A stretch of DNA of 64,000 nucleotides, taken from positions 341,310,001 through 341,374,000 of the forward strand of contig OZ024743.1 in assembly GCA_964016885.1 (NCBI GenBank), written 5' to 3'. The notes under the pieces were generated by a model that ran no database searches, was not told where the DNA came from, and worked only from the letters and a program-made list of their open reading frames with translations. Both the position numbers and the translations under genes were made by a program. Below, piece by piece: positions 11,241 through 63,139 of this stretch (positions are counted from its first letter, which is position 1; every line of letters begins with the position of its first letter). This stretch comes from Eledone cirrhosa (lineage: Eukaryota).

Positions 11241-11860
11241 CTTCTTCTTCTTCTTCTTCTTCTTCTTTCACTTGGGAGACTCATGGGAGCAAATGGATGT
11301 TATCCAACCTTCGTGTTATGTTCAGGGGCTAACCCTGGGTCACCTCTGATGGCATATTTGACTTCTTCATTAAACAAAGGGCTCCTTCTGCCACCCGGCA
11401 CCACAACGGCAGTATTTAACAGCCGAAGTAGAAAATGCCATCTCTTATTTAAACACTCTCTTCGTTTCAATTTACTCACTTTGCTTAGCCAGTTTTCTGA
11501 ATTTGGATGCACTAGACTCGCATACCTGGTCCTGCAGTTCCTTATCGACCGGGACCTCCCTATGTATACTGTAGATGTATACTTGGCCTTGCTGCTTTTG
11601 ATGGGCTTCCTTGGCTTTATGTGGATAACTAGATGGTGATCAGTTGACAGCTCAGCCCTACTCCTAACTCGAACATCTAGCACGGAATCGAAGAGATCAG
11701 TGACAATAACAATATCAATTATTGATCTCTCTCTCTGATTCCCCTTATACTATGTATATTTATGAAGGCGTTGTGCTGGAAGAAGGTGTTCATAATAGAG
11801 GACCCATTAATAGGACAGAAGTATAATAATGTCTAGCTAAACATCATATCTGGTGACCGT
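11111..11860 (-). mobile_element. RTE-clade LINE fragment with (GAA/GAG)n tail
   Basis: The minus frame gives LDVRVRSRAELSTDHHLVI (APE C-terminus). The 3' end cac(t/a)tgggagactcatgggagcaaa is shared with 27760, and the tail is (TTC/CTC)n at 11113-11265. Confidence 0.75.
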
Positions 11861-11889: not shown

Positions 11890-12520
11890 GATTAAGCAAT
11901 AAATGCCTTCAAGATTTTAATAGAAACAAACACCCTAACCATGGCCTAGTATCTAACTCTACTACCTGAACAATCAACCGACAATTTTACGAACCCTTCA
12001 CATTGAATAGGGACACACCCAACCATTTTGATGGATCATATAATATACAAGCGAATCTAACACAACCTCCCCATATCTCATATACCACCCCAAATACATG
12101 AACAAATGATGACTCTATACATTATGCACGGGTACAGTGCAACTGCAGTCACCCAACAACTCTCCTTTAAATATTAAGTGCATGTATAAAAACATAAATC
12201 ACCAGTGTGTGGTCAAAACCAAATTGCGGACTTATAAGTAAATGGGTGCAACATACAACATTTAAAAAAAAGATGGTATGTACACACGCAGTCATTCAGG
12301 GATCTCGGACTATGTAAGTCAACCGCCCTCGCCAAAAAATCTGGGATTTAAAACAGAATATGGAGTATACACTCTCCTGGTCAGTGTTAAGATTCGCCCA
12401 CCCATGCCAAAATGAAAGACGCACCTGTAATATTTGTATGATGGAAGTACTAGAAATTATGTCTTGTTGAAATCAGTTGAACTCTCGATTTGATAGAATC
12501 ATCAGCTGCTTCGCTAAATA
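11890..12520 (+). mobile_element. Degenerate Penelope-like element, GIY-YIG endonuclease region
   Basis: Translates to TTFKKRWYVHTQSFR and IWDLKQNMEYTLSWSVLRFAHPCQNERRTCNICMMEVLEIM, paralleling the 50181-51362 ORF C-terminus. Confidence 0.75.
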
Positions 12521-24004: not shown

Positions 24005-27000
24005 ATGACCTCACTCAGAACAGGCAGCATGAATGCGCGTGGCTTGGGGTCGTCATGGAAGCAGGGCCACCTGCTCAACGACCTCAGGTCACTAAACATA
24101 GATGTAGTGGCCATCAGCGAGACCAGAATCCCCGAAGCACGGGCCTTCGCACCGATCTTCGGCGGCTACGATGTGTACGCATCTCCCAGCCGTCCTGGAT
24201 CGGGGTGAGGAGTTGCTGTGCTTTTTCGGAGAGGTTTGGATCTCGCCATACGGGCCATCTTCCTGGACCCAGAAGGTAAGCTGGTGGTGCTGGACGTGAC
24301 CAGCGGAGACGGGCAAGCTTTCAGGCTAGTGGCCGTCTATGCCCCGACAGGAGCAGGGCGGCCTGATTTCTTCCGGCGTCTGGAGACCTTTCTTGGAACG
24401 TCCCGCTCTTTAGTGTTAGTGGGCGACTGGTACGGGATCTTAGATGCACGCTGGGACTGTGTGGGATTAGCGGATATGGGTGGAGGGTGCAAGAGCCTCA
24501 CCAACCTGCTCAGGCGTTTTGAACTGTCTGACAGGTACCGATTGGATTTCCCGAATGCGCCAATGTGGACTTGGACAAATCGCATAGGGTCATCCAGATC
24601 ATATCTAGATAGAGTATTTTGTAGGGAAATAGATAGGTCTAGCATAGGCTGTCCACAGTTCAAGATAGTCAGCTACACGGACCACAAATTCGTGATCTGT
24701 GTGCTTGCATTAGATAGGCTTCATAGACGAGGACCCGGCTACTGGAAGCTAAACGCGTCCTTACCAGCGCGCAAGGCCTACAGAGACCGGATTAGCGAAC
24801 TAGTTAAGCGGGCGTTGACGGGGGCCATCGTCAACAACAAGTGGTGGTTTGCTCTGAAAAGAGCGATTAGAATAGAATCCATTAGGTTTAGTAAGGCTTT
24901 AGCAATAGAGAAAAATAGAGCAGAGGGAGAACTAGTTAGAAAATTAGACGAGGCGCTTAGCAAAGGCATTGCGACTTACGTGCTTGCGGCGAAATTGGCC
25001 CTTGACCAATTCTTCAATGCAAAGCACGAATGCTGCGTTGTCAGAGCAAGGGTGCGTGCTCTCAGACACGAGGGGACGAAAGCCGTTCAATGGGCCCGAT
25101 TGGCGGAGGCGCATCGTGGCAACAAAGCCACGATCCGGTCTTTGGTGGACCACGACGGGCGCATGCTACTCGATCCCGGGCAAATGTGTGAAGCTTTTCA
25201 GCGACACTTTGCTCAGCTGTTCGGAGGCAGCGGTGGGCCGGGTCCAGGGATGGACTTTAGTGTCTACCTCGACGGACTGCCGCGGCTCTTGGCCACTGAT
25301 GCGAGGTGTTGCGAAAAGCCGATAACAGCCGCTGAAGTAAGGGAGGCAATGACTGGCTGCACAAGGGGTAAATCGCCTGGTTTGGATGGTCTGCTCTATG
25401 AACTTTACGTACAGATGCCAGACTTGTTCGGAGGCCTCTTGGCGGACGTCTACTGCAACTGGCAACAGAACGGGAAAATTCCCAGTTCTGTGAGCCGAGG
25501 AGCGGTGGCACTGCTGAGAAAGGATCCGAACAAGGGGGATAACATAGATAATTTCCGGCCCATAACTCTGCTAAACACAGAGTTCAAGATTTTGGCCAAG
25601 GTGCTAGCAAAGAGGTTGGCGCTTGTCGTTGGTGGTCTGGTGGGAGAGGCGCAGACATGCGCCATTCCCGACAGATCCATCCACGACAACCTCCACCTCA
25701 TGCGATACATCGTAGAGAGGGTAGCTAAGGAACCTGGCACGGGTGGGTCCTTGATCAATTTAGATCAGTCGAAAGATTTCGATAGGGTCGACCATCGTTA
25801 CCTAGCGGCAGTCCTGAGGGCGGCTGGCTTTGGGCCCGTCTTCAGAGGCTGGATCGCTGCCATGCACAGCGACATCTGCTCTGTGGTGAGAGTGAACGGT
25901 CACCTGTCGGAACCGTTCAACATCATGCGCTCGGTCCGCCAAGGATGTCCCCTCTCGTCCCTCTTGTACGTATTGACTCTCGAGCCATTACTGCACAAAC
26001 TGGAGACGTTGAGGGGGGTCCCGCGCGAATTAGGATGCGGAAGATCCGTGTCAGCATATGCGGACGATGTCACCGTAGTGGTGTCGAACGCCAAACACAT
26101 CGAGGCGATCGGCACTACATTAAGAGAATACGAAGCGGTGACAGGAGCAATGATCAACCAGGAAAAGTCAGTGGGCCTGCAGCTCGGCACCTGGAGAGGC
26201 AGGTCCATGTCGTCCAACAGCGTCGTCGGACGCTGGACGGACGGACCGGTTAAATTGCTAGGGGTCTGGTTCGGTCTGGACCTCCAGACGGACAAAAACT
26301 GGGACGAGGTGACGAGCAGGGTGGCTTCTCTCACCCAGAAATGGGCCCAGAGGAAGCTATCCCTGAAAGGTCGAGCGGAGGTGGCTAACACGTACATCGC
26401 GTCTGTCATCTGCTACCGCCTGACCGTCGTACCTTGTCCTAAGCCTCGCCTGACTGCGCTGGAGCGTTTGCTCTTTCGCTTTTTGTGGAAGGGACGCGCT
26501 CCGATGGTCAGGCGATCCATCTGTTGTCAACACCCGCTACGTGGAGGGCTGGGCGGGCCGTGGCTGATGATGCGCAGGCACGCGCTCAGGCTACGAGATC
26601 TCCACCTCTTCCTCGACAGTGATCAGGTGTGGTCGCCGTTTGCTAGACACGTATTTCCTCAGCTCGTTTCCTTGACGGAGCTGCAGTCCTGGGTCAAGCG
26701 AAGACCGAGAGGGAGCGCCTGGAGACTGGAATGTCTTCAGGCGCTCACAGCCCTCGACCAATCGGGCAATGTGATCGGTCTAAACTCCACCTCGGCGTTC
26801 TATAGAGGATTAGTGAAAGGGAAGAGCGACGACGTACTTGGGGAAACTCTAGGCGTCGACGAAAATCAACTAGCCAATCTCTTCGGAAGAACTTTCGGGC
26901 CTGGGCCTATGGACAACTTCCAGAAATCTCTGGCCTGGCAGTGCTACCGAGGAGCCTTGCCAGTTCGGGATAAACTCTACAGGCATGGAGGTGCCGTCAG

Positions 27001-27424
27001 CCGGGCATGTCCGAGATGCGCACAGGGCGACGAAACCGTCCTGCACGCACTCGTCCAGTGTCCGAAAATTGCTGACTTGTGGGTTTATGTCGAACACCTG
27101 CTATCGCGTTTAGGACGGATCCGGCTATCATCTGAGTCCATCGTGAGGATTGCCCCGCCCTCCTCCTTTAGCCGGGAAGGGCAGGCAGTTTTTATCTGTC
27201 AGGTGGCCATGGCGAAAGAGATAGTATGGTGGACACGTTTGAAAGGGCTGAAGACGAGCACTTACCTCTTCGGTGATGCTGTGATTGACTTTTTCAAATT
27301 TCATTTGAAAAGGAAAATCAGAGTAGAGAGGGAAGTGCTCTCTTCCCAGCATTTTGTTGAAAGATGGGTGAGAGAAGCAAGAATGGCCCGAGTGAATGGG
27401 CCTATTCTGAGTATATATCTGTAA
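24005..27424 (+). CDS. ORF2: APE endonuclease + reverse transcriptase + C-terminal zinc finger, with one in-frame TGA at 24206
   Basis: Motifs MNARGL, VVAISET, VYAP, SYLDR, YTDHK, KSPGLDG, FRPITLLN, VRQGCPLS, YADD and CPRC..ETVLHALVQC. ORFs 24005-24208 and 24218-27424 are in the same frame. Confidence 0.92.
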
Positions 27425-27678
27425 ATTAAAGGTGGAAAACTGGGGAGGGCACTTGCCTTGGTGGTCAGGGTCATTGTGGCTTTTTACTGGGCTTTCTCCA
27501 CAAATGTCCCTCCGAAGTCTCCCCCCTATTGGGGAATTTTTCATTGTTATTTTTTGTTACACCCTCTGTTTTTCTTGTTTTTTTACACGCAGAAATGCCC
27601 ATTTGTACCGTCCTGTATTGTCCTGCACTGTCCTTAATGTCTACTTTATGTAAACCCTTGTGATTAATAAAGAAATCA

Positions 27679-29252: not shown

Positions 29253-29437
29253 AAACACACATAAGAGATTCTGCGTCTGTGTGTTCGTATGCATGTATGT
29301 ATATGCACACACACATACAAACACACACACAAACACATACAATATATATATATATTAAGATAAGCAGAACAAGTAAAATTCAATCAATTTTTCAAAATAC
29401 ATTAAAAAATATAATATAAATATTTACCTCTCCTAGT

Positions 29438-29520
29438 GGCCCTTACTGATCAGTTTCGCTTTGTAAAACCTCATAAATCCGATGGATTTATGATGGAAAA
29501 CCAAAGCTCATCAGAGAAGC
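29438..29520 (-). ncRNA. Type I hammerhead ribozyme motif (canonical core)
   Basis: Minus strand reads ttct CTGATGA gctttg...tcataaatcc-atc-ggatttatga...caaagc GAAA ctgatcag TA aggg. Stem II has a 6-bp base plus a 10-bp distal hairpin, and stem III is palindromic (ACTGATCAGT). Confidence 0.82.
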
Positions 29521-29677
29521 ATTTTCCCTTCCTAGGGCTAAACGTCCCAGGAACGACAAAATATACAACCTCCTGCCAGCTAATAAAGGTCTGAAAGGTC
29601 GTAAAATTGACCCGTATGTAAACTGGACCGAAGTAAAAGCGGGAAAATCAAAGACTTGCTGTCTACAATTACTACTA

Positions 29678-29715
<38 letters not shown>

Positions 29716-32040: not shown

Positions 32041-32069
32041 AGGAGGAAGAGCAGAGTGTGCGTACCACT

Positions 32070-33145
32070 ATTGTGTGTACCGCTAAAGTGTGTACCGCTA
32101 AAGTATGTACCGCTACAGTGTGAACCGCTAAAGTGTGTACCGCCAAAGTATGTACCTTTAAAGTGTGTACCGCCAAAGTATGTACTCCTAAAGTGTGTAC
32201 CACCAAAATATGTACCGCTAAAGTGTGTACCGCCAAAGTATGTACCGCTCGCTAATGTATGTACCGCTAAAGTGTGTACCACCAAAGTATGTACCGCTAA
32301 AGTGTGTACCACCAAAGTATGTACCCCTAAAGTGTGTACCGCCAAAATATGTACCGCTAAAGTGTGTAGCGGTAAAGTGTGTACCGCCAAAGTATGTACC
32401 GCTAAAATATGTACAGCTAAAGTGTGTACCGCCAAAGTATGTATCGCTAACGTGTGTACCGCCAAAGTATGTACCGCTAAAGTATGTACCGCTAAAGTGT
32501 GTACCGCCAGAGTATGTACTGCTAAAGTGTGTAACGCCAAAGTATGTACCGCTAAAGTGTGTACCGCCAAAGTATGTATCGCTAAAGTGTGTACCGCCAA
32601 AGTATGTACCGCTAAAGTGTGGACCGCCAAAGTATTACCGCTAAAGTATGTACCGCTACAGTGTTTACCGCAAAAGTGTGTGCCGCCAAAGTATGTACCG
32701 CTAAAGTCTGTACGGCCAAAGTATGTACCGTTAAAGTGTGTACCGCTAAAGTGTGTACCACCAAAGTATGTACCGCTAAAGTGTGTACCGCCAAAGTATG
32801 TACCGCTAAAGTGTGTACCGTCAAAATATGTACCGCCAAAGTGGGTACCGCCAAAGTATGTACCGCCACAGTATGTACCGCTAAAGTGTGAACCGCCAAA
32901 GTATGTACCGCCAAAGTATGTACCGCCAAAGTGTGTACCGCCAAAGTATGTACCGCCAAAGTATGTACCGCCAAAGTGTGTACCGCCAAAGTATGTACCG
33001 CCAAAGTATGTACCGCCAAAGTGTGTACCGCCAAAGTGTGTAACGCCAAAGTATGTACCGCCAAAGTGTGTACCGCCAAAGTGTGTAACGCCAAAGTATG
33101 TACCGCCAAAGTATGTACGGCTACAGTGTGTACCGCTACAGTCCG
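32070..33145. repeat. 15-bp minisatellite aaagt(g/a)tgtaccgc(c/t), about 70 copies, partly with 30-bp higher-order alternation
   Basis: The tandem periodicity is directly visible. Confidence 0.97.
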
Positions 33146-39161: not shown

Positions 39162-39476
39162 CTTCCCTCCGAAGAAGATATATTATCTCGAAAATTAAGG
39201 ACATTTAAATAAATCTAAGGTAAAAGACTAATTGTCAACAATATCTTTTGCATTTGCATTCTTTATTCTATGCCCATACCTGCATTGTTCCGGCTTTATT
39301 ATACATATACAAACGTTTATACCTCATTACACAATGCTTCAAGTGAACTATAACCTCCTCCATGTATATAAATATATCGAGTGAGTGTAACGTGAAATTA
39401 CTGTAAGTTCACCCAGGTGAGCACTCGATGTTTAAATAGACGTCTGTAGCGAGGTGTATACTTACACAGAGTGTAA

Positions 39477-39777
39477 ATATAATAATACAAGTACGATTTG
39501 TTATGCCTTCATCACGCTTATTGATTGGTGACAAGCGTTTCGCTATTGATCAGCTGAAGGTTCGATCTATATCGATGTAGCCCGACTCTGGAATCAAATG
39601 CTCATTGGACCTCAGTTGTTGCAATGTCATTAAAACAGCAGAGGTCCGACGAGCTTTTTATTCCAGAGTCGGGCCAGATCTATACAGATCGAATCTTCAG
39701 CTGATTAATAGCGAAATGCTTGTCACCAACCAATAAACGTGATGAAGGCATAACAAATCGTCCTTGTATCATTATAT
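39477..39777. repeat. Imperfect inverted repeat, about 140-bp arms
   Basis: The arms pair end to end (e.g. gatttgttatgccttcatcacg / cgtgatgaaggcataacaaatc; gcccgactctggaat / attccagagtcgggc). Confidence 0.92.
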
Positions 39778-39807
39778 ATAAATAGATATATATGCATATA
39801 TATATAT

Positions 39808-45091: not shown

Positions 45092-45796
45092 ACCATCAAT
45101 AGATATATATTCAAGTGGGCTCCTATAATTCATCAGTGGGTGCCCCAATAATACTAATATTGATAATCTAACCAACATCAGTATTTAGCGATAATCATCA
45201 TCCTCTGTGCCTGAGGTATCTGTCAGGTTGCCAGTCCAGCAGTTTTAAAGAAGTGCTCAAACTGATTCAAAAAATGAGGAAGTAAATTACCGCCAGAAAA
45301 ACAATACATGCGCATGACAATGAATTCTGAAAGCAATTCAGGCCACGTGCTAAGAACTCAACAGAAACGAATATATATATATATTTCGTTTCTGAATTTG
45401 TTTAGCAAGATTCATTATCTGAAAACGTGTGTTGAAACCGATATTGTTATACTTTGGGAGCGTCATGTTGCCAATAAGAAACACACGCACCAGATGCTTT
45501 CACATAAATATTTTTTCAATTTTCAATTGAGTTCTTAGCACGTGGCCTGAATTCCTTTCAGAATTCATTGTCATGCGCATGTATTGTTTTTCTGGCGGTA
45601 ATTTACTTCCTCATTTTTTGAATCAGTTTGAGCACTTCTTTAAAACTGCTGGACTGGCAACCTGACAGATACCTCAGGCACAGAGGATGATGATTATCGC
45701 TAAATACTGATGTTGGTTAGATTATCAATATTAGTATTATTGGGGCACCCACTGATGAATTATAGGAGCCCACTTGAATATATATCTATTGATGGT
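45092..45796. repeat. 270-bp-arm inverted repeat with 165-bp spacer
   Basis: 45092-45361 vs 45527-45796 show one mismatch by eye. The spacer contains a repeat also present at about 62466-62558. Confidence 0.95.
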
Positions 45797-49814: not shown

Positions 49815-49862
<48 letters not shown>

Positions 49863-50180
49863 TTAAGTTGTTAAACAATATTCGATGATTATGTCAAATC
49901 CAGATGGATATTACTAGCTACTATTCTTCTATAACACTTAAACTTCTAAATAAGGCCCTCTGATATGCTTATAAGCATACCGATCTAACCACAAATGAAA
50001 TAGATATAATTTTAACAGCTAGAAGAACTCTCATTAACTTCAATAACGAACTTTGGACACGCTCAGATAGAGATAGAAACTTTGATATCACTATGGGGGC
50101 ATCTGATTCCGCGCAAATCACAGATCTTCTGGGAGTTTTCATATTAAACATGATAAATAGGAAACTGCCGGAGATTACCA

Positions 50181-51362
50181 GTGGTTTATGATGAGATTTT
50201 ATTTACGGTGGTCAAACACAATAATATAGAATTAAAAAGAGTTAAGAAAAGTATAATAGAATTCTTTAAAACGTACGACCTCAAATTAGAAGTAGAAAAT
50301 GGTACCAAAATAGTTAATTTCCTTGACGTTACCTTCACCTTAAACACTGGCTTCTATTACCCTTTTCATAAGCCTAATGAACACTTAAGCTATGTTAGTA
50401 ACTATTCAAATCACCCTAGATCTGCAAAAAACGCTATAGTAAATAGTGTGCAAAAACGTATTAATAAAATATCAGCTAATAAAGATATATTTGATAAAAA
50501 TGCGAAATATTACAACAACGCGTTAAAAAGAGCAGGATATATGAATAATATAGAATATGTAGATAATAACAATCCAAGTATTATTCCTAATAATAATAAT
50601 AAAAATTATAACACATATAAGAGTAACTCTAATGACTATAACTCAAACACACATACGCTAAATAAATCGAGAATACGAACTAGATCTAAACCAGTCATAT
50701 GGTTTGCACCCCCAGCTTCGGCCGCACTTAAAACACCAATTGCAAAACTATTCTTTAAAGCTCTTGACACCTCTTTCTCTACTCAACATAAATACCATTC
50801 CATTTTTAATAGACATACCATTAAATTCGCAAATTCTACAACCAGTAACATGGCCCAAATCATCGCCAAATTACACGCCAAAATCCTAAAACCAAACCAA
50901 CATAATGATAATAATAATAGAGTTAACATTAATGATACTAAACCAAATTGTAATTGTAGAAATAAAAGTAATTGCCCTTTGCAAAATAATTGTTTAGATA
51001 GTAATTTGGTTTATAAATGCACCGTAAAAACTGACCATAAGACATACAATTACATTGGATCAACCTCGTCCACATTCAAACTTCGTTTCGCGAACCATAA
51101 ATGCTCATTCTCGAACTCTAAGAAGAAATCATCCACGTCTTTATCACAGCTCACATGGTCTTTAAAAGAGAAGAATCTGGAATACTCCATTCTTTGGACA
51201 AAACTTCGGAACTGTGGAATTTACCGCAACTCTAGTATTTCAAATAACTGCCCGCTCTGTACAATGGAAACCCTGTTTATTATTAATAATTATGAGACCC
51301 TAATTAACAAAAAAAGTGAATTATTCTCTAATTGCCTCCGTAAAGCTCTGTCCACTTTTTGA
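50181..51362 (+). CDS. Penelope-like ORF fragment: RT thumb, Cys-rich linker and GIY-YIG endonuclease
   Basis: Motifs VNFLDVTF, YHKP-like FHKPN, SNHP, VIWFAPP, CNCRNKSNCPLQNNCL..NLVYKC, YIGSTSSTFKLRFANHKCSF and CPLCTME. Confidence 0.92.
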   Translation: MVYDEILFTVVKHNNIELKRVKKSIIEFFKTYDLKLEVENGTKIVNFLDVTFTLNTGFYYPFHKPNEHLSYVSNYSNHPRSAKNAIVNSVQKRINKISANKDIFDKNAKYYNNALKRAGYMNNIEYVDNNNPSIIPNNNNKNYNTYKSNSNDYNSNTHTLNKSRIRTRSKPVIWFAPPASAALKTPIAKLFFKALDTSFSTQHKYHSIFNRHTIKFANSTTSNMAQIIAKLHAKILKPNQHNDNNNRVNINDTKPNCNCRNKSNCPLQNNCLDSNLVYKCTVKTDHKTYNYIGSTSSTFKLRFANHKCSFSNSKKKSSTSLSQLTWSLKEKNLEYSILWTKLRNCGIYRNSSISNNCPLCTMETLFIINNYETLINKKSELFSNCLRKALSTF

Positions 51363-52969
51363 GTCTCACATAAAACGAGAAAGAAAGAACCAATAACAAC
51401 TCGGTTACCAGTAATATATAATCAACAGTAAAAAAACATCAATGGCCTTTAATATTGCTTTATTTTATAAATATGTATAGAAAAAACAACGTTAGAATGA
51501 ATGACAATATTTCAATTAGCATGCCTAAACATTGATACACACAACTTTATTTGTTAACTTTGATAAACACCATCATTTATCTATAATTTAGTACAATACC
51601 TAATCCTTACATATCTATTGAATTTATTTAACTGTGAATTTTTAATACATTTGTAATCTCTTTTAAATTTTAGTTTTAATACCCAATGCAAAAAAATTTT
51701 ACGAAACTTATCTATAACTCCAAATGTTTAATGACTTTTTGATCTATTATTTGTAGTATAATATAGCATATATTTCTTTTAAATATACTTACTGCACTAT
51801 AAAATCTAAATTTGAGACGGATTCAAACTTATATATAAATGTGAACTTTTCACTGTACTTTCGATCTCTTATTTATTTATTTATTTATTTATAATATAAT
51901 GTATTATAATATATATGTAGTTATATATTGTATTTTATATATTTTTAAATATTTTTAAATATACCTACCATACTTCTATATACATAATTCAAATATAAAG
52001 AAAATATCCAAACTAAAAATTATTATAGACATTATTTTGAACTTTATACATGCATTCATTGTTCGTTTTTCTTATATGTATATATATATATATTTAAATG
52101 TGACACGTTGTTAAGATTCTAATGTTATCATTTACCTAATGTATAATACAATAATAATACCTAATATATATCTATATATATACATCACTATATCTAATAA
52201 TATGTTGATGTCTTGCATGAAGAATAATTACTACATTTACACCCAATTATACATATGTATAAAATTTATCCGTAACATATTATTTTATTTTATTTTTATC
52301 TTCGTTGGTATTATTTACCTTAAACATACTGACTCATTAATATATACCTATATACATAATAGTTATTCAAATATTTATAACAATAATTACTTCAAAAGCT
52401 TTACATACCTAATATGTTGGGATATTTGTTAAAGTTTAGATTTAGGTAATTAATCAACAGTATAATATTTTATTCTTTATGTGCCAGCTAAATCCTTTAA
52501 AATGTTATTCTCACAATTCAGAAGTTTAGAAATGATAACACACTTATCGAATTTATATAAATAATATATAAATAAATAGCAAATAATCCTGAAATCTGGA
52601 GTCTTCACATTAATATTATAAATTAAATATTTCCAAATCTAACCGTTTAACTTACGACCCCCCCCCCACACACACACACTTTATCTTTCCTTCCTTATAA
52701 ATCTGTTTCCTGTGGCTATCACTGGCTGTTATGATTCATGTGACGTTTCCCTAGATATATTGTAGTATCATAAAATTTAAAATTTTAGAACACTTTCAGT
52801 ATGCAACGTTTTTTCTTACTCACACATTCTCTAATGAATTCATTACGTTTTCGCACTTTCACACAGATATTATATAAGTACAATTTTCTATCGGGTAATC
52901 ACTACCTTGATTAAATCTTAACCATTTAACATCTCAGGGTAGGTCTATATCATTATATTTCAGGGTATC

Positions 52970-53032
52970 ATTATATTTTGTCTGATGAGGACGTACTGTT
53001 GTACATCCGAAATATGTATAATAAAATATAAT
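52970..53032 (+). ncRNA. Type I hammerhead ribozyme at the 3' end (pLTR) of the Penelope element
   Basis: attatattttgt CTGATGA ggacgtac tgtt gtacatcc GAAA tatgta TA ataaaatataat; 12-bp stem I and 7/8-bp stem II. Confidence 0.82.
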
Positions 53033-53192
53033 TGATCAAAAGAACATCTATTGTATTAATACTTATATTTTAATAAGTTGTAATAAAATGAAAACGAAAT
53101 TTCATTTCTCACTCTTGGTACGGCACTTACTTAAATGTAAGTATGTGTGTATACGTACATACATATATGTATACAGACGTACAGTAGCATGC

Positions 53193-53225
<33 letters not shown>

Positions 53226-53377
53226 CAGGTACACATACATATATGCACGCATCAGCTTAGCGGACGCTTATTATAACGCCGCTTTGTTCGTTTGTAAACA
53301 AACTGAACAGCCTGAATTGTTATGCCGTACGGTGTTAAGACAACCACGTCACCTTTTTGTTCAACACTGACACAGGA

Positions 53378-53420
53378 ACGATGTACTAGTTTCAAGCTTG
53401 TTAGCTATCATCAGCACCGT
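53378..53420 (-). ncRNA. Minimal type I hammerhead ribozyme (array copy 1)
   Basis: Minus strand reads acggtg CTGATGA t agct aaca agct t GAAA ctag TA catcgt. Confidence 0.82.
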
Positions 53421-53834
53421 ATACCCATCTGCCAGATAGTTGAACGTTCGAAATTATATACTTTCCTTATGAAAATTAACGGCTGAGCAGCCTAATTTGC
53501 ATATCGAGTGAGATCGGTCAGGCGTACCGAGAACGATAAGTTGTAATAAAATGAAAATGAAATTTCATTTCTCACTCTTAGTACGGCACTTACTTAAATG
53601 TAAGTATGTGTGTGTACGTAAATACATATATGTATACAGACGTACAATAGCATGCATATATATATATATATATATATACATACAGGTACACATACATATA
53701 TGCACGCATCAGCTTAGCGGACGCTTATTATAACGCCGCTTTGTTCGTTTGTAAACAAACTGAACAGCCTCAATTTTTATGCCGTACGGTGTTAAGGCAA
53801 CCACGTCACCTTTTTGTTCAACACTGACACAGGA

Positions 53835-53877
53835 ACGATGTACTAGTTTCAAGCTTGTTAGCTATCATCAGCACCGT
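53835..53877 (-). ncRNA. Minimal type I hammerhead ribozyme (array copy 2)
   Basis: Identical to copy 1, 457 bp away. Confidence 0.82.
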
Positions 53878-54109
53878 ATACCCATCTGCCAGATAGTTGA
53901 ACGTTCGAAAGTATATACTTTCCTTATGAAAATTAACGGCTGAGCAGCCTAATTTGCATATCGAGTGAGTTCGGTCAGGCGTACCGAGAACGATAAGTTG
54001 TAATAAAATGAAAACGAAATTTCGTTCCTCACTCTTAGTACGGCACTTACTTAAATATAAGTATGTGTGTATACGTACATACATATATGTATACAGACGT
54101 ACAGTAGCA

Positions 54110-54158
<49 letters not shown>

Positions 54159-54392
54159 GCTACTGTACGTCTGTATACATATATGTATGTATGTATACAT
54201 ACATACTTACATTTAAGTAAGTGCCGTACTAAGAGTGAGAAATGAAATTTCGTTTCATCATATTCCAACTTATCGTTTTCGGTGCGCCTGGCCGACTGAA
54301 CTCACTCGATATGCAAATTAGGCTGCTCAGCCGTTAATTTTCATAAGGAAAGTATATACTTTCGAACGTTCAACTATCTGGCAGGCGGGTAT

Positions 54393-54435
54393 ACGGTGCT
54401 GATGATAGCTAACAAGCTTGAAACTAGTACATCGT
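54393..54435 (+). ncRNA. Minimal type I hammerhead ribozyme (array copy 3)
   Basis: acggtgCTGATGAtagctaacaagcttGAAActagTAcatcgt. Confidence 0.82.
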
Positions 54436-54872
54436 TCCTGTGTCAGTGTTGAACACAAAGGTGACGTGGTTGCCTTAACACCGTACGGCATAAAAATTGA
54501 GGCTGTTCAGTTTGTTTACAAACGAACAAAGCGGCGTTATAATAAGCGTCCGCTAAGCTGATGCGTGCATATATGTATGTGTACCTGTATGTATATATAT
54601 ATATTATATATATATAATATATATATATATATATGCATGCTACTGTACGTCTGTATACATATATGTATGTACGTATACACACATACTTACATTTAAGTAA
54701 GTGCCGCCGTACTAAGAGTGAGAAATGAAATTTCGTTTTCATTTTATTACAACTTATCTTCCTCGGTACGCCTGACTGAACTCACTCGATATGCAAATTA
54801 GGCTGCTCAGCCGTTAATTTTCATAAGGAAAGTATATACTTTCGAACGTTCAACTATCTGGCAGATGGGTAT

Positions 54873-54915
54873 ACGGTGCTGATGATAGCTAACATGCTTG
54901 AAACTAGTACATCGT
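54873..54915 (+). ncRNA. Minimal type I hammerhead ribozyme (array copy 4, one stem II substitution)
   Basis: As copy 3 but with aacatgctt; 480 bp downstream. Confidence 0.78.
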
Positions 54916-55705
54916 TCCTGTGTCAGTGTTGATCAAAAAGGTGACGTGGTTGCCTTAACACCGTACGGCATAAAAATTCAGGCTGTTCAGTTTGTTTACA
55001 AACGAACAAAGCGGCGTTATAATAAGCGTCTGCTAAGCTGATGCCTGCATATATGTATGTGTACCTGTATGTATATGTATATGCATGCTACTGTACGTCT
55101 GTATAGATATATGTATGTACGTATACACACATACTTACATATATTTTAATATATATATATATATATATATATTCATGTGTGTTTGGATATATTAGGCCTT
55201 TCCTGTACACTCACCCACGTACTATGTAATAACAGTATCTTCTGTTCTTAGTGCAATTAGATTTTAACCGTAATATATATCATTCTGACGAGAGACAGTA
55301 GCTAAAATTAGTATGTTAAACAGTAGGATATGAGGTAACAAAACTGGTCTACGTCGGAAATTAATGTGTACAAAAAGTTCAAATGTGAATATATTGGTTT
55401 GACCGTGGAAAACAACTGTCTAAATTTGAAGGCACACAATCTTTGGCAATGAGAATGATGCACGACATCGTTGATTAGCAAAATTGGCGCAAATCTGTGG
55501 GATTCACAAGATTGCTTTGCTTTGCAGCCAATTGGTCGCAAACCTATGCCTACTATGCGGTATATTTTGTCAATATCCATTTTAAATAGAATGTGAAGGC
55601 TGGATGTATGTAGATGTCCATTTTACACACGCACACAAACACACACACACACAAATACTCACCCATACACTCAAACACGCACCGAAAAAGATGGAGCAAA
55701 CATAA

Positions 55706-55890
55706 TAATTGTTTCTACTTTTGGCACATGGCCAGTAATTATCTCAGTGTATTACTGGTACTTTATTTTATCGACCCTGTAAGGATGAAAGGCAAAGTGA
55801 ACCTCTGCAGGATTTGAACTCAGAATGGCAAAGGCCGTAACTATGCGTCAAAGCATGGCGTCCGACCCTCTACCGATACTGCCAATCCAA
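55706..55890 (-). mobile_element. tRNA-derived SINE
   Basis: Reverse-complement copy. Confidence 0.85.
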
Positions 55891-55978
55891 TACAAGACAA
55901 AAGAGAAGGCACAGAAGTAGGATATAGTCGTTGATGAAGTCACGGTGTGTGTGTGACGAACTTTGATAATTACGTAAG

Positions 55979-56015
<37 letters not shown>

Positions 56016-56032
56016 CCAGTGTCTGTGTTTGT

Positions 56033-56091
<59 letters not shown>

Positions 56092-56369
56092 CTATTATAT
56101 TTCTGAGTTGATTTTCGTTTACCTTTCGCACGCACGCACACACACACGCACATATATATATATATATGTATGTATATATATATATATATATACTCTTCTA
56201 CGGCCTCGATATGAATACCCCCTCCGCCTCCGTGGTATTTTCTTCGTGGTTATAAGAGGCTTAGCTCTGTTTCTCGACCGTTATATCGCGTGACTATCTC
56301 CCCCTCCGCCTTTTTGGGATTCTTTCTCACGTCGTGTGGACGCGTTCTTGAGACTAGTAAAATGAGGTA

Positions 56370-56457
56370 TCCTCTTGATAAGTCGGCAGACCTCGCAGGG
56401 ACTCTATATCTTTGATATATTGTTTTTGTTTATGCCACGAAACTACGTAGTCGAGGA
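56370..56457 (+). ncRNA. Type I hammerhead with U3-A8 compensatory core and long stem II
   Basis: tcctc TTGATAA gt(c)ggca...tgccac GAAA ctacgtag TC gagga. Confidence 0.75.
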
Positions 56458-56961
56458 ATTTAGGAGCAGTTTAGGTATGATACATTTTATTACTAATTAT
56501 ATCTAAATGTTTCTTCTCTCTTCATAATGTATTTTTAACTCTGATACTGGTTCAGTCTGGTTCAAACTGAATTGGTCTGTCCCAGTCATTCATTGAGCAA
56601 CATCGGTGAAGTTGGCACCCTTAACTCACAGTTGGGTGCGGATGCATTCATGTATATATGTGTGTGTCCGCATGTATCTGTGTGTTCCTAAATATATTAA
56701 TAACTCCCTCTGGTCGAGCAATCTTTGAAGTGTGGGGACAACTGGAAAGCTTCCATTACTCATACTTCACGCCTTCTTCACTACCTCTTCTACGGCCTCG
56801 ATATGAATACCCCCTCCGCCTCCGTGGTATTTTCTTCGTGGTTATAAGAGGCTTAGCTCTGTTTCTCGACCGTTATATCGCGTGACTATCTCCCCCTCCG
56901 CCTTTTTGGGATTCTTTCTCACGTCGTGTGGACGCGTTCTTGAGACTAGTAAAATGAGGTA

Positions 56962-57049
56962 TCCTCTTGATAAGTCGGCAGACCTCGCAGGGACTCTATA
57001 TCTTTGATATATTGTTTTTGTTTATGCCACGAAACTACGTAGTCGAGGA
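56962..57049 (+). ncRNA. Second copy of the U3-A8 hammerhead
   Basis: Identical sequence 592 bp downstream. Confidence 0.75.
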
Positions 57050-57961
57050 ATTTAGGAGCAGTTTAGGTATGATACATTTTATTACTAATTATATCTAAAT
57101 GTTTCTTCTCTCTTCATAATGTATTTTTAACTCTGATACTGGTTCAGTCTGGTTCAAACTGAATTGGTCTGTCCCAGTCATTCATTGAGCAACATCGGTG
57201 AAGTTGGCACCCTTAACTCGCAGTTGGGTGCGGATGCATTCATGTATATATGTGTGTGTCCGCATGTATCTGTGTGTTCCTAAATATATTAATAACTCCC
57301 TCTGGTCGAGCAATCTTTGAAGTGTGGGGACAACTGGAAAGCTTCCATTACTCATACTTCACGCCTTCTTCACTACCTCTTCTACGGCCTCGATATGAAT
57401 ACCCCCTCCGCCTCCGTGGTATTTTCTTCGTGGTTATAAGAGGCTTAGCTCTGTTTCTCGATCCAATTACCATCAAATGTTGTTAAACATTGGGATTGAA
57501 AGTTATACTACTAAGAAAGAAAAAAACACACACGCCTCAGTGGAGTTTCACTATTTATTATTAGTCACGTTAGTTTAGTAACCGGCTGGTAATTTAATTT
57601 TCAAAGGCCTTTTGTAATGTATTATCTGGTTATAAATAATTAGGCACTATGTTTCCCCATTTCGTTTCGATTTTCTTCTAGTTGCACCATTATCTTGAGT
57701 TGTGTATATTTACATTGTTCCTTATTCTCTCTATTCCATTCTAGCCTGTATTCCTTTGATCAAAGCAAGTCCGATTTATATTGTTTTCCATGATAGTTTT
57801 CGATTTCGCCTCGATATTTTGTATACTCTGAACCCTGCCCTTTCTTTGCATGCAGATAATTGCACGCGGGAGCTGTTCCTTCTCGCCCTTACAAGTTTCA
57901 GTATTAGAATATTGATATTTATGTTATCTTATATATATGTATATATACACACACACACACA

Positions 57962-57998
<37 letters not shown>

Positions 57999-58196
57999 TC
58001 ATATGCGTTGTGTGTGTATGTGTGTATGCGTGTCAACGTCCACAATATTTTAGCAGTCACACTATGCTTTCAATCTTGTAAAAGCCACAGATATCAAGTC
58101 ACATATTACGCCAGCTGATTCCAATTGTGCAATCCAAAAGAGATTTTCTTACTTTATCGCATGAAGTGCTTGAAATAAAAGTAAAATATCTCGCAA

Positions 58197-58382
58197 ATAA
58201 TTGTTTCTACTTTTGGCACAAGGCCAGCAATTACCCAGTACATTACTGGTACTTTATTTTATCGAACCCGTAAGGATGAAAGGCAAAGTTAACCTCGGCG
58301 GGATTTGAACACAGACCGTAAAGGGACGTAACTATGCTGGAAAGCATGGCGTCCGACTCTCTACTGATACTGCCAATCCACT
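58197..58382 (-). mobile_element. tRNA-derived SINE
   Basis: Reverse-complement copy. Confidence 0.85.
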
Positions 58383-59671: not shown

Positions 59672-61640
59672 TCTTCTTCATCTTCGTCACCCACTTACAT
59701 CTGAGAGGGTTATTAGGCCAAAGTCCTCAGACACTTCTTCCAGTGGGTCTTGTCAGAAGCAACCGACTTCAATACATCTGCACCCCCAAGCGAGACCCGC
59801 CAAGCTCATGAACGTTATCCAACCATCTTACTCCGGTCTAACCCTTGGTTTTGCGAGTAAGATCTTTCCTGAGACATTCCAACTACATCCCTAATATCGG
59901 AGCTATGATATCAATTTGGAGAAGTAGCGGCTCTACTTGGAGGGACTCTCTGAACCCAATTTCGGCCGCTTGTGTTTGCGATCGTATTCTTTCGGTCATT
60001 ACCCCAAATTCATGACCATAGATTGGCAAAAATACCGAATTGAAGATAGCGAGAATGGCTTTTTTTATCTACCTTCCTTCTTCTGACTACCGAATGCTGA
60101 AACTGGCGCATTACTGCACCACTTCCTGCAATTCTTGCACTTAATTCAGCCACCATCACTTGTTAATATGACCCTGAGATGCTTGAATTTCGCCACCTGC
60201 TTCAATGGAATTCCATTTCGATATAGAGTGCACTGTGCAGGCTTTCTTCAGAGGACGATTTTTCAGTTTCGCAACACTGTTCATTCCAGTCATGAAGCCC
60301 TCAGCATCAAACCTAACAAGTAAAAGTCAGAGATCACAGTCTGTCGAGTTAAGTAACACCATGTCGTCTGCAAATTCCAGCCGACTGATTTTACACCCAC
60401 CTTTCACGATACCACTTCCAACCCGACTGCGCATGTCAATGCTTTTCTTAAAAAGAATGAACAAGAGAGTTAGCAATACGGTCTCTTCGCAGAGTCTGAC
60501 TCCCACATCGAATAGATTCGATGTAGTACCATTTATACGAATACAAATTCTCGGTCATTCATATAGAGACATCAGGCCAGTAAGAAGCTGCCTTCCACAG
60601 CAGGTTCCACGGGGTTTACAAAACAGGAATACCCTTCTTGGCAAAACTCCCAGGATTTCTCGATGACCTGCCGCAGTGTACATATTTGTTTGCCTGTGTT
60701 GTTCCCGCGGCGAAAACCACACAGTTCACCAGCTAGCTTGGACTCGAAATCTCTATGCATCGTTTTACCAGATACTTAGCATAGACGTTAGCGAGGAGTC
60801 TTAACAAGGAGGGAGATCTCTCTGTAGCTGGAACAATGTCTGATAGCAGGTGCAGAGGAAGACCTCTTATTATGAAGTCTGTAGATGTTCTACCAGAACA
60901 CTCTATTTGTTGATCTGAAGTCGGATTCCAGCTTAACCCTAAAGTACTCCCATGTTGTAACTTTGGACGCCTTTACTGTCTGTCTGCGATTTTCCGTGCT
61001 TCCATTACAGCAAGTGCAAGAAGGGGGACTTATTTCCAAGGTAAACTTTTTAAGCCTTCTTCCTTGCATGCATGGCATATTTACCCCCTTCATTGAACCA
61101 AGGAGTTCTCCTGCCATCTAGCGCCACACTAGGCCCCTTCTGCCTGCAGTATTTAACAGCTAAAGCAGAAACTACTTGGCTGAACATTCTTTTCTCTGTC
61201 TCAACGTCCTCAGTTTTCTCAGGCAGTTCTTTGAATTTTGATGCAATAGTATCTACAAATATATCCCTGACTTTCTTATCCACCAATGCTTCCCACCTTA
61301 TCCTGCAGGTCATCCTCGACTAACCAGTTGTGTAGCTTCCTTGGCTTTAGTAAGTCTCAAGTTGTAGATAACCAGATGGTGATCAGTTGACAGCTCAGCC
61401 CCTCCCTTAATTCGAACACCCAGCACAGAATCAATGAGATCAAAATCAATAACAAAATCAATTATTGATCTCTGTCCCTGAATCTTCTTATACTCTGTCC
61501 CTGAATCTCCTTATACTCTGTATATTTATGGATGTATCTGTGCTGGAAGTAAGTGTTCATAATAGAGTGTCCATTGCTAGATAAAATGTATAATAAGACC
61601 TCTCCATTCTTATTTAGATCGGGGATTGCCGTTCGTTCCA
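59672..61640 (-). mobile_element. Degenerate RTE-clade LINE (APE C-terminus to RT, with deletions)
   Basis: Minus frames give GAELSTDHHLVI (about 61390), CGFRRGNNTGKQICTLRQVIEKSWEF and LEFADDMVLL (about 60365), ending in a short (GAA)n-like tail. Confidence 0.82.
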
Positions 61641-62377: not shown

Positions 62378-62454
<77 letters not shown>

Positions 62455-62567
62455 ATATATATATATTTCGTTTCTGAATTTGTTTAGCAAGATTCTTTAT
62501 CTGAAATCGTGTGTTGAAACCGATATTGTTATACTTTGGGAGGGTCATGTTGCCAATAATATATATA

Positions 62568-62605
<38 letters not shown>

Positions 62606-63085
62606 TGACGTAAAATAAGGAAATTATAAAAATTAACTTACTTACTAAAATTTCACTCCAACTAATTAGTTTCTGAAAGGAAAAAAACATGGTTTCCGAA
62701 TGGAGAGCATGGAGAAGCCGTTTCGTCTTCAGGAAGTCTGTTCTCAGCTAATATACCTGGCGATGCGTGGACACGGGGAACTTATACAAAAATAATTCAG
62801 TGGATGGAAAAAAGCAAGCGTGGACTAAATTCCAAGACATTGAAAAAAATCACTGCCTATTTGGTCGGTGGCAAATTCAAAAGAATCAATCACGTGACAT
62901 CGAGGGTAATCAGTGTTGAGTGGGGTGTTAAAAAGACAGTAGCCAAGCTGTTACTATGAACTATAGTAGCAGTTTTGGCAAATGTTTGCTCAACAAAATA
63001 ATTTGGAGATAATTATAAAGAATTAGTATATCTACCAACATATATATACAGATTCATACCTATGCTAGAAAATATATAGGTTGTG

Positions 63086-63139
<54 letters not shown>

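Follow-up and report, generated by a model that had tools for sequence, protein, structure and literature searches.

The segment from 49860 to 57461 of a 64,000-nucleotide stretch of Eledone cirrhosa DNA (NCBI GenBank assembly GCA_964016885.1, contig OZ024743.1, positions 341,310,001 to 341,374,000 of the forward strand) contains a broken Penelope-like element (PLE) followed by two arrays of non-coding repeats, with units of 460 and 592 bp. The whole stretch is called 'the window' below, and positions are counted from its first letter. All three components carry hammerhead ribozyme (HHR) motifs, and the 460-bp array is framed by a 12-bp target site duplication (TSD). Taken as a whole, these features are best explained by three separate insertions at (TA)n tracts, namely a Hydra-clade PLE that is now broken, a TSD-framed array of a 460-bp retrozyme, and the 592-bp array; we regard this explanation as quite probable. 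We conclude that PLE-type insertions have nested here at (TA)n in an ordinary way, without forming a special cluster, and that one well-documented new retrozyme family is among them.

A motif-and-pairing scan gave nine type I HHR candidates in the whole 64-kb window, compared to 0.3 per shuffled window (30 shuffles). Seven motifs lie between 52970 and about 57050; the PLE accounts for one, the 460-bp family for four, with two on each strand, and the 592-bp family for the remaining two. The preliminary description of this DNA had counted seven ribozymes of three unrelated families, and this count holds, since blastn found no mutual similarity of the three outside microsatellite-like stretches. 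The stem III regions are self-complementary in all seven motifs, as is typical of metazoan HHRs, which are thought to act as dimers (PMC4209133). In Rfam (window, E ≤ 1), no hammerhead family was found among the 150 listed of 154 matches, which were microsatellite-driven, nearly all to microRNA families, and below gathering score. The HHR calls therefore rest on our own motif and pairing scans, and self-cleavage is a prediction, with dimer-dependent cuts expected after 53020, 54429 and 56452.

The 460-bp array and its target site duplication

The array consists of a left arm on the minus strand (53076 to 54133; 2.3 head-to-tail units, HHR cores at 53871 and 53414) and a right arm on the plus strand (54134 to 55139; 2.1 units, cores at 54399 and 54879). 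The two meet head to head in the unit's own (TA)n tract (54113 to 54154), the inversion arms 54012-54133 and 54134-54255 lying 0 nt apart and meeting near 54133. A type I HHR is present in 4/4 full units, at an HHR-to-HHR spacing of 457 to 480 bp. The preliminary description had recognized an array of units with HHRs; this array is not a plain tandem but is inverted head to head, and its TSD had been missed.

The 12-mer TATATTTTAATA stands at both ends of the array on the plus strand, at 53064 to 53075, where the PLE tail meets (TA)n, and at 55140 to 55151, where it runs into the (TA)n tract 55149-55172. It occurs only twice in the 64 kb, both strands considered, at precisely these two junctions. 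No match of this length was obtained at any of 3000 random positions or of 355 positions where a (TA)n begins. Since the TSD has the last bases of the PLE and runs into (TA)n, the array was inserted into an existing junction between PLE tail and (TA)n. The TSD can be read because the array landed at this junction and not inside pure (TA)n, a reading that is usually impossible for microsatellite-targeting PLEs. We conclude that the 460-bp array is a separate insertion, and the TSD together with the divergence of the copies suggests that it came later than the PLE.

The 3' end of the left arm lies 308 nt past the HHR cut and faces the 3' end of the PLE, while that of the right arm lies 230 nt past the cut; the left arm extends about 60 nt further along the unit. 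The copies have diverged by about 1.7%, with 3 to 11 private substitutions each in 410 columns. All four full copies carry a C at 53256, where the public reads described below have a T (7882 of the 7980 plus-strand reads of restriction-site-associated DNA (RAD), and nearly all contig depth in run X1). Because this C is shared, both arms derive from one template lineage. Inverted structure, TSD and one-sided extension are published marks of PLE integration, so that the 460-bp unit is most likely a non-long-terminal-repeat (non-LTR) retrozyme moved in trans by some PLE. The earlier suggestion that a PLE mobilises HHR RNAs in trans is thus retained for the 460-bp array, which bears these marks, but not with the adjacent PLE copy as the mobiliser, whose reverse transcriptase (RT) is broken.

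The unit itself is non-coding (longest ATG open reading frame (ORF), 60 amino acids), has a GC content of 37% and no LTR structure, and its array has a 12-bp TSD. By these DNA features of the published definition, it is most likely a non-LTR retrozyme. For comparison, a metagenome scan provided Hydra-clade loci, of which the best 80 of 399 related stretches were used, some of them redundant. Neither the 460- nor the 592-bp unit matched these 80 loci beyond microsatellite sequence, and an exact-pattern scan of metagenome contigs for the 460-bp HHR gave no match. The extra U...U base of stem II in the 460-bp HHR is also found in 26/46 HHRs of the Hydra loci and, counted by eye, in 14/25 published Hydra HHRs; it suggests a link of the 460-bp family to the Hydra clade, without being shown to be clade-specific.

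Public reads from 4 of 15 listed runs (X1, X13, X5 and X8) were aligned to positions 49860-53535. The 460-bp unit was about 100-fold deeper than the PLE ORF in three of them: 0.18 to 1.0 million compared to 0.8 to 10.8 thousand in X1, 6,726 (last bin) compared to 27 to 119 in X13, and up to 508 compared to 0 to 24 in X5. It was also present in X8, and its head-to-tail joints recurred in other copies. The unit thus behaves as a multi-copy family, in terms of a depth far above that of the PLE in X1, X13 and X5, which is not calibrated to copy number. In the RAD run, huge piles of loose ends (53097/53098 and 53318) as well as places where reads end (53030/53033, 53477 and 53494/53497) were considered as element termini and rejected: all of them fall on AATT sites, which we take, from the enzymes presumably used, to be library cut sites.

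The Penelope-like element and other hammerhead motifs

The PLE copy (49860 to 53075) begins at a (TA)n tract (49831 to 49858). Its coding region (49860 to 51362, plus strand) is followed by an AT-rich 3' spacer or untranslated region (51363 to 52969, plus strand; 23% GC) and by a type I HHR (52970 to 53032, plus strand, core at 52982) with a 12-bp stem I and a predicted cut after 53020, as judged from motif scan and folding. The coding region contains part of the RT, the thumb, a CxCX5C linker and, at the C terminus, a GIY-YIG endonuclease, as well as two Asn-rich inserts. In a search that took in protein lengths of 703-2005 only, it matched 16 homologs of 704 to 724 amino acids (best E 2.5e-63, 31 to 37% identity). 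The profile of these homologs is covered in order from position 248 to 696, RT before C-terminal GIY-YIG, in two frames. The copy begins within the RT, has two stops in the first frame and is frameshifted at the YRDD motif, and it therefore cannot supply RT. The RT and GIY-YIG domains of the ORF described earlier are thus confirmed by the profile, but the ORF is not intact. No Pfam match was obtained with the PLE frame.

Several features relate this element to the Hydra clade. The invariant cysteines of the CxCX5C linker (C265, C267 and C273) are found in the homolog alignment. Of the CxxC and CxH motifs around the conserved E and N, CxxC is present (C365, C368), and this copy lacks the H of CxH. 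The region of the N-terminal RWK and DKT motifs, present in the homologs, was lost by the 5' truncation. By eye, there is near identity between the top homolog, P0001, and the published Hydra-2_Amil protein. With its C-terminal GIY-YIG, CxCX5C linker, 3' HHR and (TA)n target, the element fits the Hydra clade, references having been compared by eye. Assignment to the Naiad clade, considered first, was rejected: Naiads have an N-terminal endonuclease and no canonical HHRs.

The HHR lies about 1.6 kb past the stop of the coding region, and not directly behind the ORF as first stated. Is it nevertheless the element's own, as was also claimed? A sense HHR is found 3' of the ORF in 46/70 Hydra loci having at least 150 nt downstream, and the motif at 52982 is for this reason most likely that of the PLE. 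Downstream (TA)n was found in 15 of those 46 loci, 34 to 115 nt past the HHR cut; without the 460-bp array, the PLE has (TA)n at both ends, and its cut lies about 55 nt from (TA)n and the end of the TSD, within that range. The spacer of 1.6 kb is longer than in any of the 46 loci, where ORF and HHR are 107 to 1140 nt apart. It also explains why the element, although truncated, already measures 3.2 kb, when lengths of generally under 3 kb are given for the Hydra clade as typical, not strict (PMC8557442). In X1, multi-copy contigs cover the spacer at a depth similar to that of the ORF, one bin being skipped, and no single piece spans ORF to HHR. Against the 8 listed X1 pieces (of 7031 aligned), 104 of 1140 bases differ, about 9%, which serves as a proxy for the age of the PLE.

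Other observations concern the same element. Depth climbs over its last 250 bp (52812-53057), to 60 to 356 thousand in X1 compared to a few thousand, and about 2- to 6-fold in X13, which suggests that many short 3' stumps of this PLE family exist. The Asn-rich (AAT) inserts relative to the homologs are located at 50560-50640 and 50900-50940, and variable AAT joints were seen there in reads. A second, heavily decayed Hydra-like endonuclease fragment lies at 12117-12512 (profile E 3e-9), and no HHR was found after it.

Elsewhere in the window, a fourth HHR family is represented by a single motif with a long stem II (core 29514) on a piece of about 330 bp (29345-29680, minus strand) between two (TA)n tracts. 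Its cut lies 99 nt from (TA)n, and no Hydra-like ORF accompanies it; by its sequence, the piece looks like a PLE 3' stump. At 62571-63133 (minus strand, core 62732), a weak HHR-like motif with a palindromic stem III stands about 60 nt from (TA)n. It was not counted as a secure HHR, its fold (z = 0.56) being no better than that of shuffles.

The 592-bp array and insertion at (TA)n tracts

The third component (56193 to 57461, plus strand) comprises 2.14 tandem units with HHR cores at 56375 and 56967, and its 5' end adjoins the (TA)n tract 56173-56192. The two copies differ at 1/592 bases (about 0.2%), and the longest ATG ORF of the unit has 75 amino acids. A check of junctions for TSDs, proposed in the preliminary description, was positive at the 460-bp array but negative here, where no duplication of at least 4 bp lies 6 bp or less from the ends; the published definition of non-LTR retrozymes does not require a TSD. 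The HHR has a U3-A8 variant core and stems I and III in 2/2 units, and its stem II is interrupted by a bulge after no more than 2 bp. Of the three families, this one has the weakest motif: it passes the first scan but fails the stricter one, and its fold (z = 0.11) is no better than that of shuffles. The U3-A8 core is also present in 3/46 HHRs of the Hydra loci, and U3-A8 covariation is reported in Schistosoma PLE HHRs (PMC4209133). An exact-pattern scan of viral contigs for this HHR gave no match. From its sequence, the array is probably a third, younger event, arising either as a young insertion of retrozyme-like type or through recent local duplication of such an insertion.

The spacings noted earlier are correct, with 43 bp from the PLE HHR to the 460-bp array and about 1.05 kb from there to the 592-bp array, and with the insertions removed the three sites fall within 1044 bp of pre-insertion DNA. 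If insertions pick among the 49 (TA)n tracts of the window, such closeness has a P of 0.065 to 0.14. Stacking of PLE-type ends at (TA)n also recurs in other Hydra loci: in 4 of the 80, a second, unrelated HHR lies close by (L026:2272-2567, L061:551-760, L074:1074-1345 and L079:620-1737), in all but L079 across a (TA)n. In L026, the two 3' ends face each other across the tract, the same topology as that of PLE and 460-bp array. The cluster therefore adds little. The preference for (TA)n that had been suggested accounts for all three sites, and the notion of a special cluster of autonomous element and parasites is not supported, its closeness being what (TA)n targeting predicts. The three insertions are likely separate, and close because Penelope-type endonucleases favour (TA)n.

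Several points weigh against this reading, or against a part of it. Under uniform insertion (4-5 HHR insertions in the window), the closeness of the sites has a P of 0.004 to 0.009, and the simulation behind both ranges of P was designed post hoc, with the data in view, and draws on 4-5 events. An empty site was not encountered, and neither junction of the 460-bp array is crossed by a listed read piece. Depth is not copy number: contig depths are sums, and a GCATGC site at 53187 biases the RAD run. Folded as circles, the two units have z-scores of -7.3 and -6.6; this was discounted as weak support, because control windows reach similar z-scores (4 of 10 had -4 or lower). An extra base in stem II has also been reported for HHRs of PLEs at large, and the 460-bp 3' ends, 230 and 308 nt past the cut, fall outside the 34 to 115 nt of the Hydra loci, so that a PLE of a different clade may be the mobiliser. 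As to the 592-bp array, it has no TSD and a weaker HHR, and it lies outside the read-covered stretch 49860-53535.

Could the 460- and 592-bp units be stumps, that is, pseudo-LTRs (pLTRs), of other autonomous PLE families whose ORF lies outside the window? The HHR variants seen in them also occur at Hydra PLE ends, retrozymes are considered to derive from pLTRs (bioRxiv 10.64898/2026.07.22.740005), and solo HHR stumps between (TA)n tracts do occur, at 29514 in the window and in L074. Yet the arrays consist of complete units joined head to tail, with 457 to 592 bp and no ORF between HHRs; in the 5 Hydra loci with a tandem of their own, by comparison, the HHRs are 2.36 to 2.85 kb apart and an ORF lies between them. 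Their longest ORFs are the short ones given above, the 16 Hydra proteins (Hydra-type only) had no tblastn match in either array, and the 460-bp tandem joints recur in other copies. We give this explanation an outside chance; descent of the units from pLTRs is by itself compatible with three separate insertions.

Alternatively, the arrays might be satellite-like DNA produced by local tandem duplication and foldback, or an assembly error, with no reverse transcription at the site. The near identity of the 592-bp copies and their lack of a TSD are in line with this, as is the (TA)n at the centre of the inversion, a natural foldback site. For the second 592-bp copy, local duplication is plausible. 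On the other hand, the private substitutions of the 460-bp arms are unlike an assembly foldback, one TSD frames both arms, and HHR cores are kept in 4/4 full 460-bp units and 2/2 full 592-bp units, which makes this origin improbable for the arrays as a whole.

A template jump in target-primed reverse transcription adds sequence on the 5' side. It had been proposed that template jumping between ribozyme-cleaved RNAs brought in the PLE and the HHR arrays together or as a coupled host-parasite cluster, and the exact abutment of the 460-bp array on the PLE end and the closeness of the sites under uniform insertion speak for it; such a single event is nevertheless strongly disfavoured, and we consider it very improbable, because 3' ends face each other at the PLE/460-bp junction, the TSD encloses the 460-bp array only and no junction falls on an HHR cut (distances of 55, 308, 230 and 417 nt), to which are added the differing apparent ages of the parts (about 9%, 1.7% and 0.2% divergence for PLE, 460- and 592-bp arrays, which are rough measures) and stem III loops that pair best with themselves in the 460- and 592-bp families (-6.8 and -14.3 compared to -3.1 kcal/mol), PLE-460 pairing being nil.

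Proposed mechanism and known systems

Under three separate insertions, the following history may be proposed. The PLE, whose junctions with (TA)n are observed, would have come first, as a 5'-truncated insertion into (TA)n, in line with the preference of the Hydra clade for such tracts (PMC8557442). Later, an active PLE elsewhere, probably of the Hydra clade, would have placed one nick in each strand, with 12 bp between them, at the junction of the old PLE tail and (TA)n. Both nicks would have primed cDNA synthesis on one lineage of multimeric or circular 460-bp RNA, each over more than 2 units, and the two cDNAs may have joined at the self-complementary (TA)n of the unit; a self-priming foldback at (TA)n, as proposed for Penelope (PMC3846280), is an equal alternative. 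This would leave two arms inverted head to head within a TSD, one of them extended. As for the 592-bp array, it would probably be younger, having arisen as a retrozyme-like insertion or by recent local duplication of such an insertion. In AT-rich DNA, a PLE protein is reported to nick the two strands and to extend both, starting at internal sites of the RNA (PMC11167929), and inverted pLTRs, 8-10-bp TSDs, one-sided tails, palindromic joints, insertion of PLE into PLE in opposite orientation and mobilisation in trans are described for Penelope (PMC3846280).

A stronger version, which we put forward tentatively and hold to be possible rather than probable, is that the 460-bp family is a very abundant retrozyme parasitising Hydra-clade PLEs, and that its insertion records priming on both strands of the target with one multimeric or circular RNA, the two cDNAs annealing at the unit's own (TA)n as the selected joint. 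If true, it would provide junction-level evidence for the integration of retrozymes by PLE enzymes, and would be a rare case in which the stagger of a GIY-YIG endonuclease targeting (TA)n, here 12 bp, can be read.

The PLE resembles published Hydra-clade elements (Craig et al. 2021, PMC8557442) in the C-terminal GIY-YIG, the CxCX5C linker, the CxxC motif, the canonical HHR near the 3' end and the insertion at (TA)n. It differs from them in being truncated and broken, in the length of its ORF-to-HHR spacer and in its two Asn-rich inserts. Spacers of 0.9 to 1.5 kb between ORF and pLTR, and Asn-rich inserts, are described for Adineta vaga Penelopes (PMC3846280).

The 460-bp array is like animal non-LTR retrozymes (Cervera and de la Pena 2020, PMC7229834; Li et al. 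2026, bioRxiv 10.64898/2026.07.22.740005), which are described as tandem repeats without coding capacity, their units measuring a few hundred bp and having a type I HHR, a palindromic loop 3 and less than 50% GC, with TSDs of more than 4 bp; for the 460-bp family, circular RNA and self-cleavage are predictions. Mobilisation of retrozymes by PLEs has already been proposed (PMC7229834) and argued (bioRxiv 10.64898/2026.07.22.740005), so that what is new here is a retrozyme family member with good junction evidence, not the idea. In the accessible text of these papers, the integrating enzyme is still argued from co-occurrence and phylogeny, and head-to-head inverted arrays with one-sided extension are not described. 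Our literature search, which left most subscription papers outside, found no published inverted, TSD-flanked retrozyme insertion. A retrozyme insertion with the full PLE signature of inversion, TSD and one-sided extension supports the PLE model, and predicts the same for other copies.

A structural parallel is provided by the Penelope of Adineta vaga with inverted pLTRs (Arkhipova et al. 2013, PMC3846280), with which the 460-bp array shares head-to-head inversion, TSD, a tail on one arm, secondary insertion into a PLE of opposite orientation and, probably, mobilisation in trans. The present array departs from it in that each arm holds several units of an HHR repeat that has no ORF, the TSD is 12 bp long compared to 8-10 bp, the extension measures about 60 nt, and the arms are joined in the (TA)n of the unit itself. 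Non-autonomous PLEs of the Chlamys group, such as MRC1 (PMC8557442), are likewise ORF-less parasites of PLEs with multicopy head-to-tail insertions, but their 3' end resembles that of the autonomous partner and they are described as having no canonical HHR, whereas no partner was identified for the 460- and 592-bp units.

The window contains further repeats. A dispersed repeat of about 185 bp, presumably similar to short interspersed nuclear elements, is found at 55704-55889, 58196-58380 and about nine more places (77 to 91% identity). An inverted repeat at 45092-45796 has 293-nt arms (96%) and a short (TA)n in its spacer; neither a TSD nor an HHR was found with it, and its central part matches 62453-62559 (97%). 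A palindrome of about 300 bp (87%), also with no HHR, adjoins (TA)n at 39474-39780. A minisatellite array with a 15/30-bp period occupies 32058-33142, and older dispersed repeat pairs were seen at 1-1549 and 25918-27471 (78%) and at 11349-11829 and 61072-61596 (67% identity).

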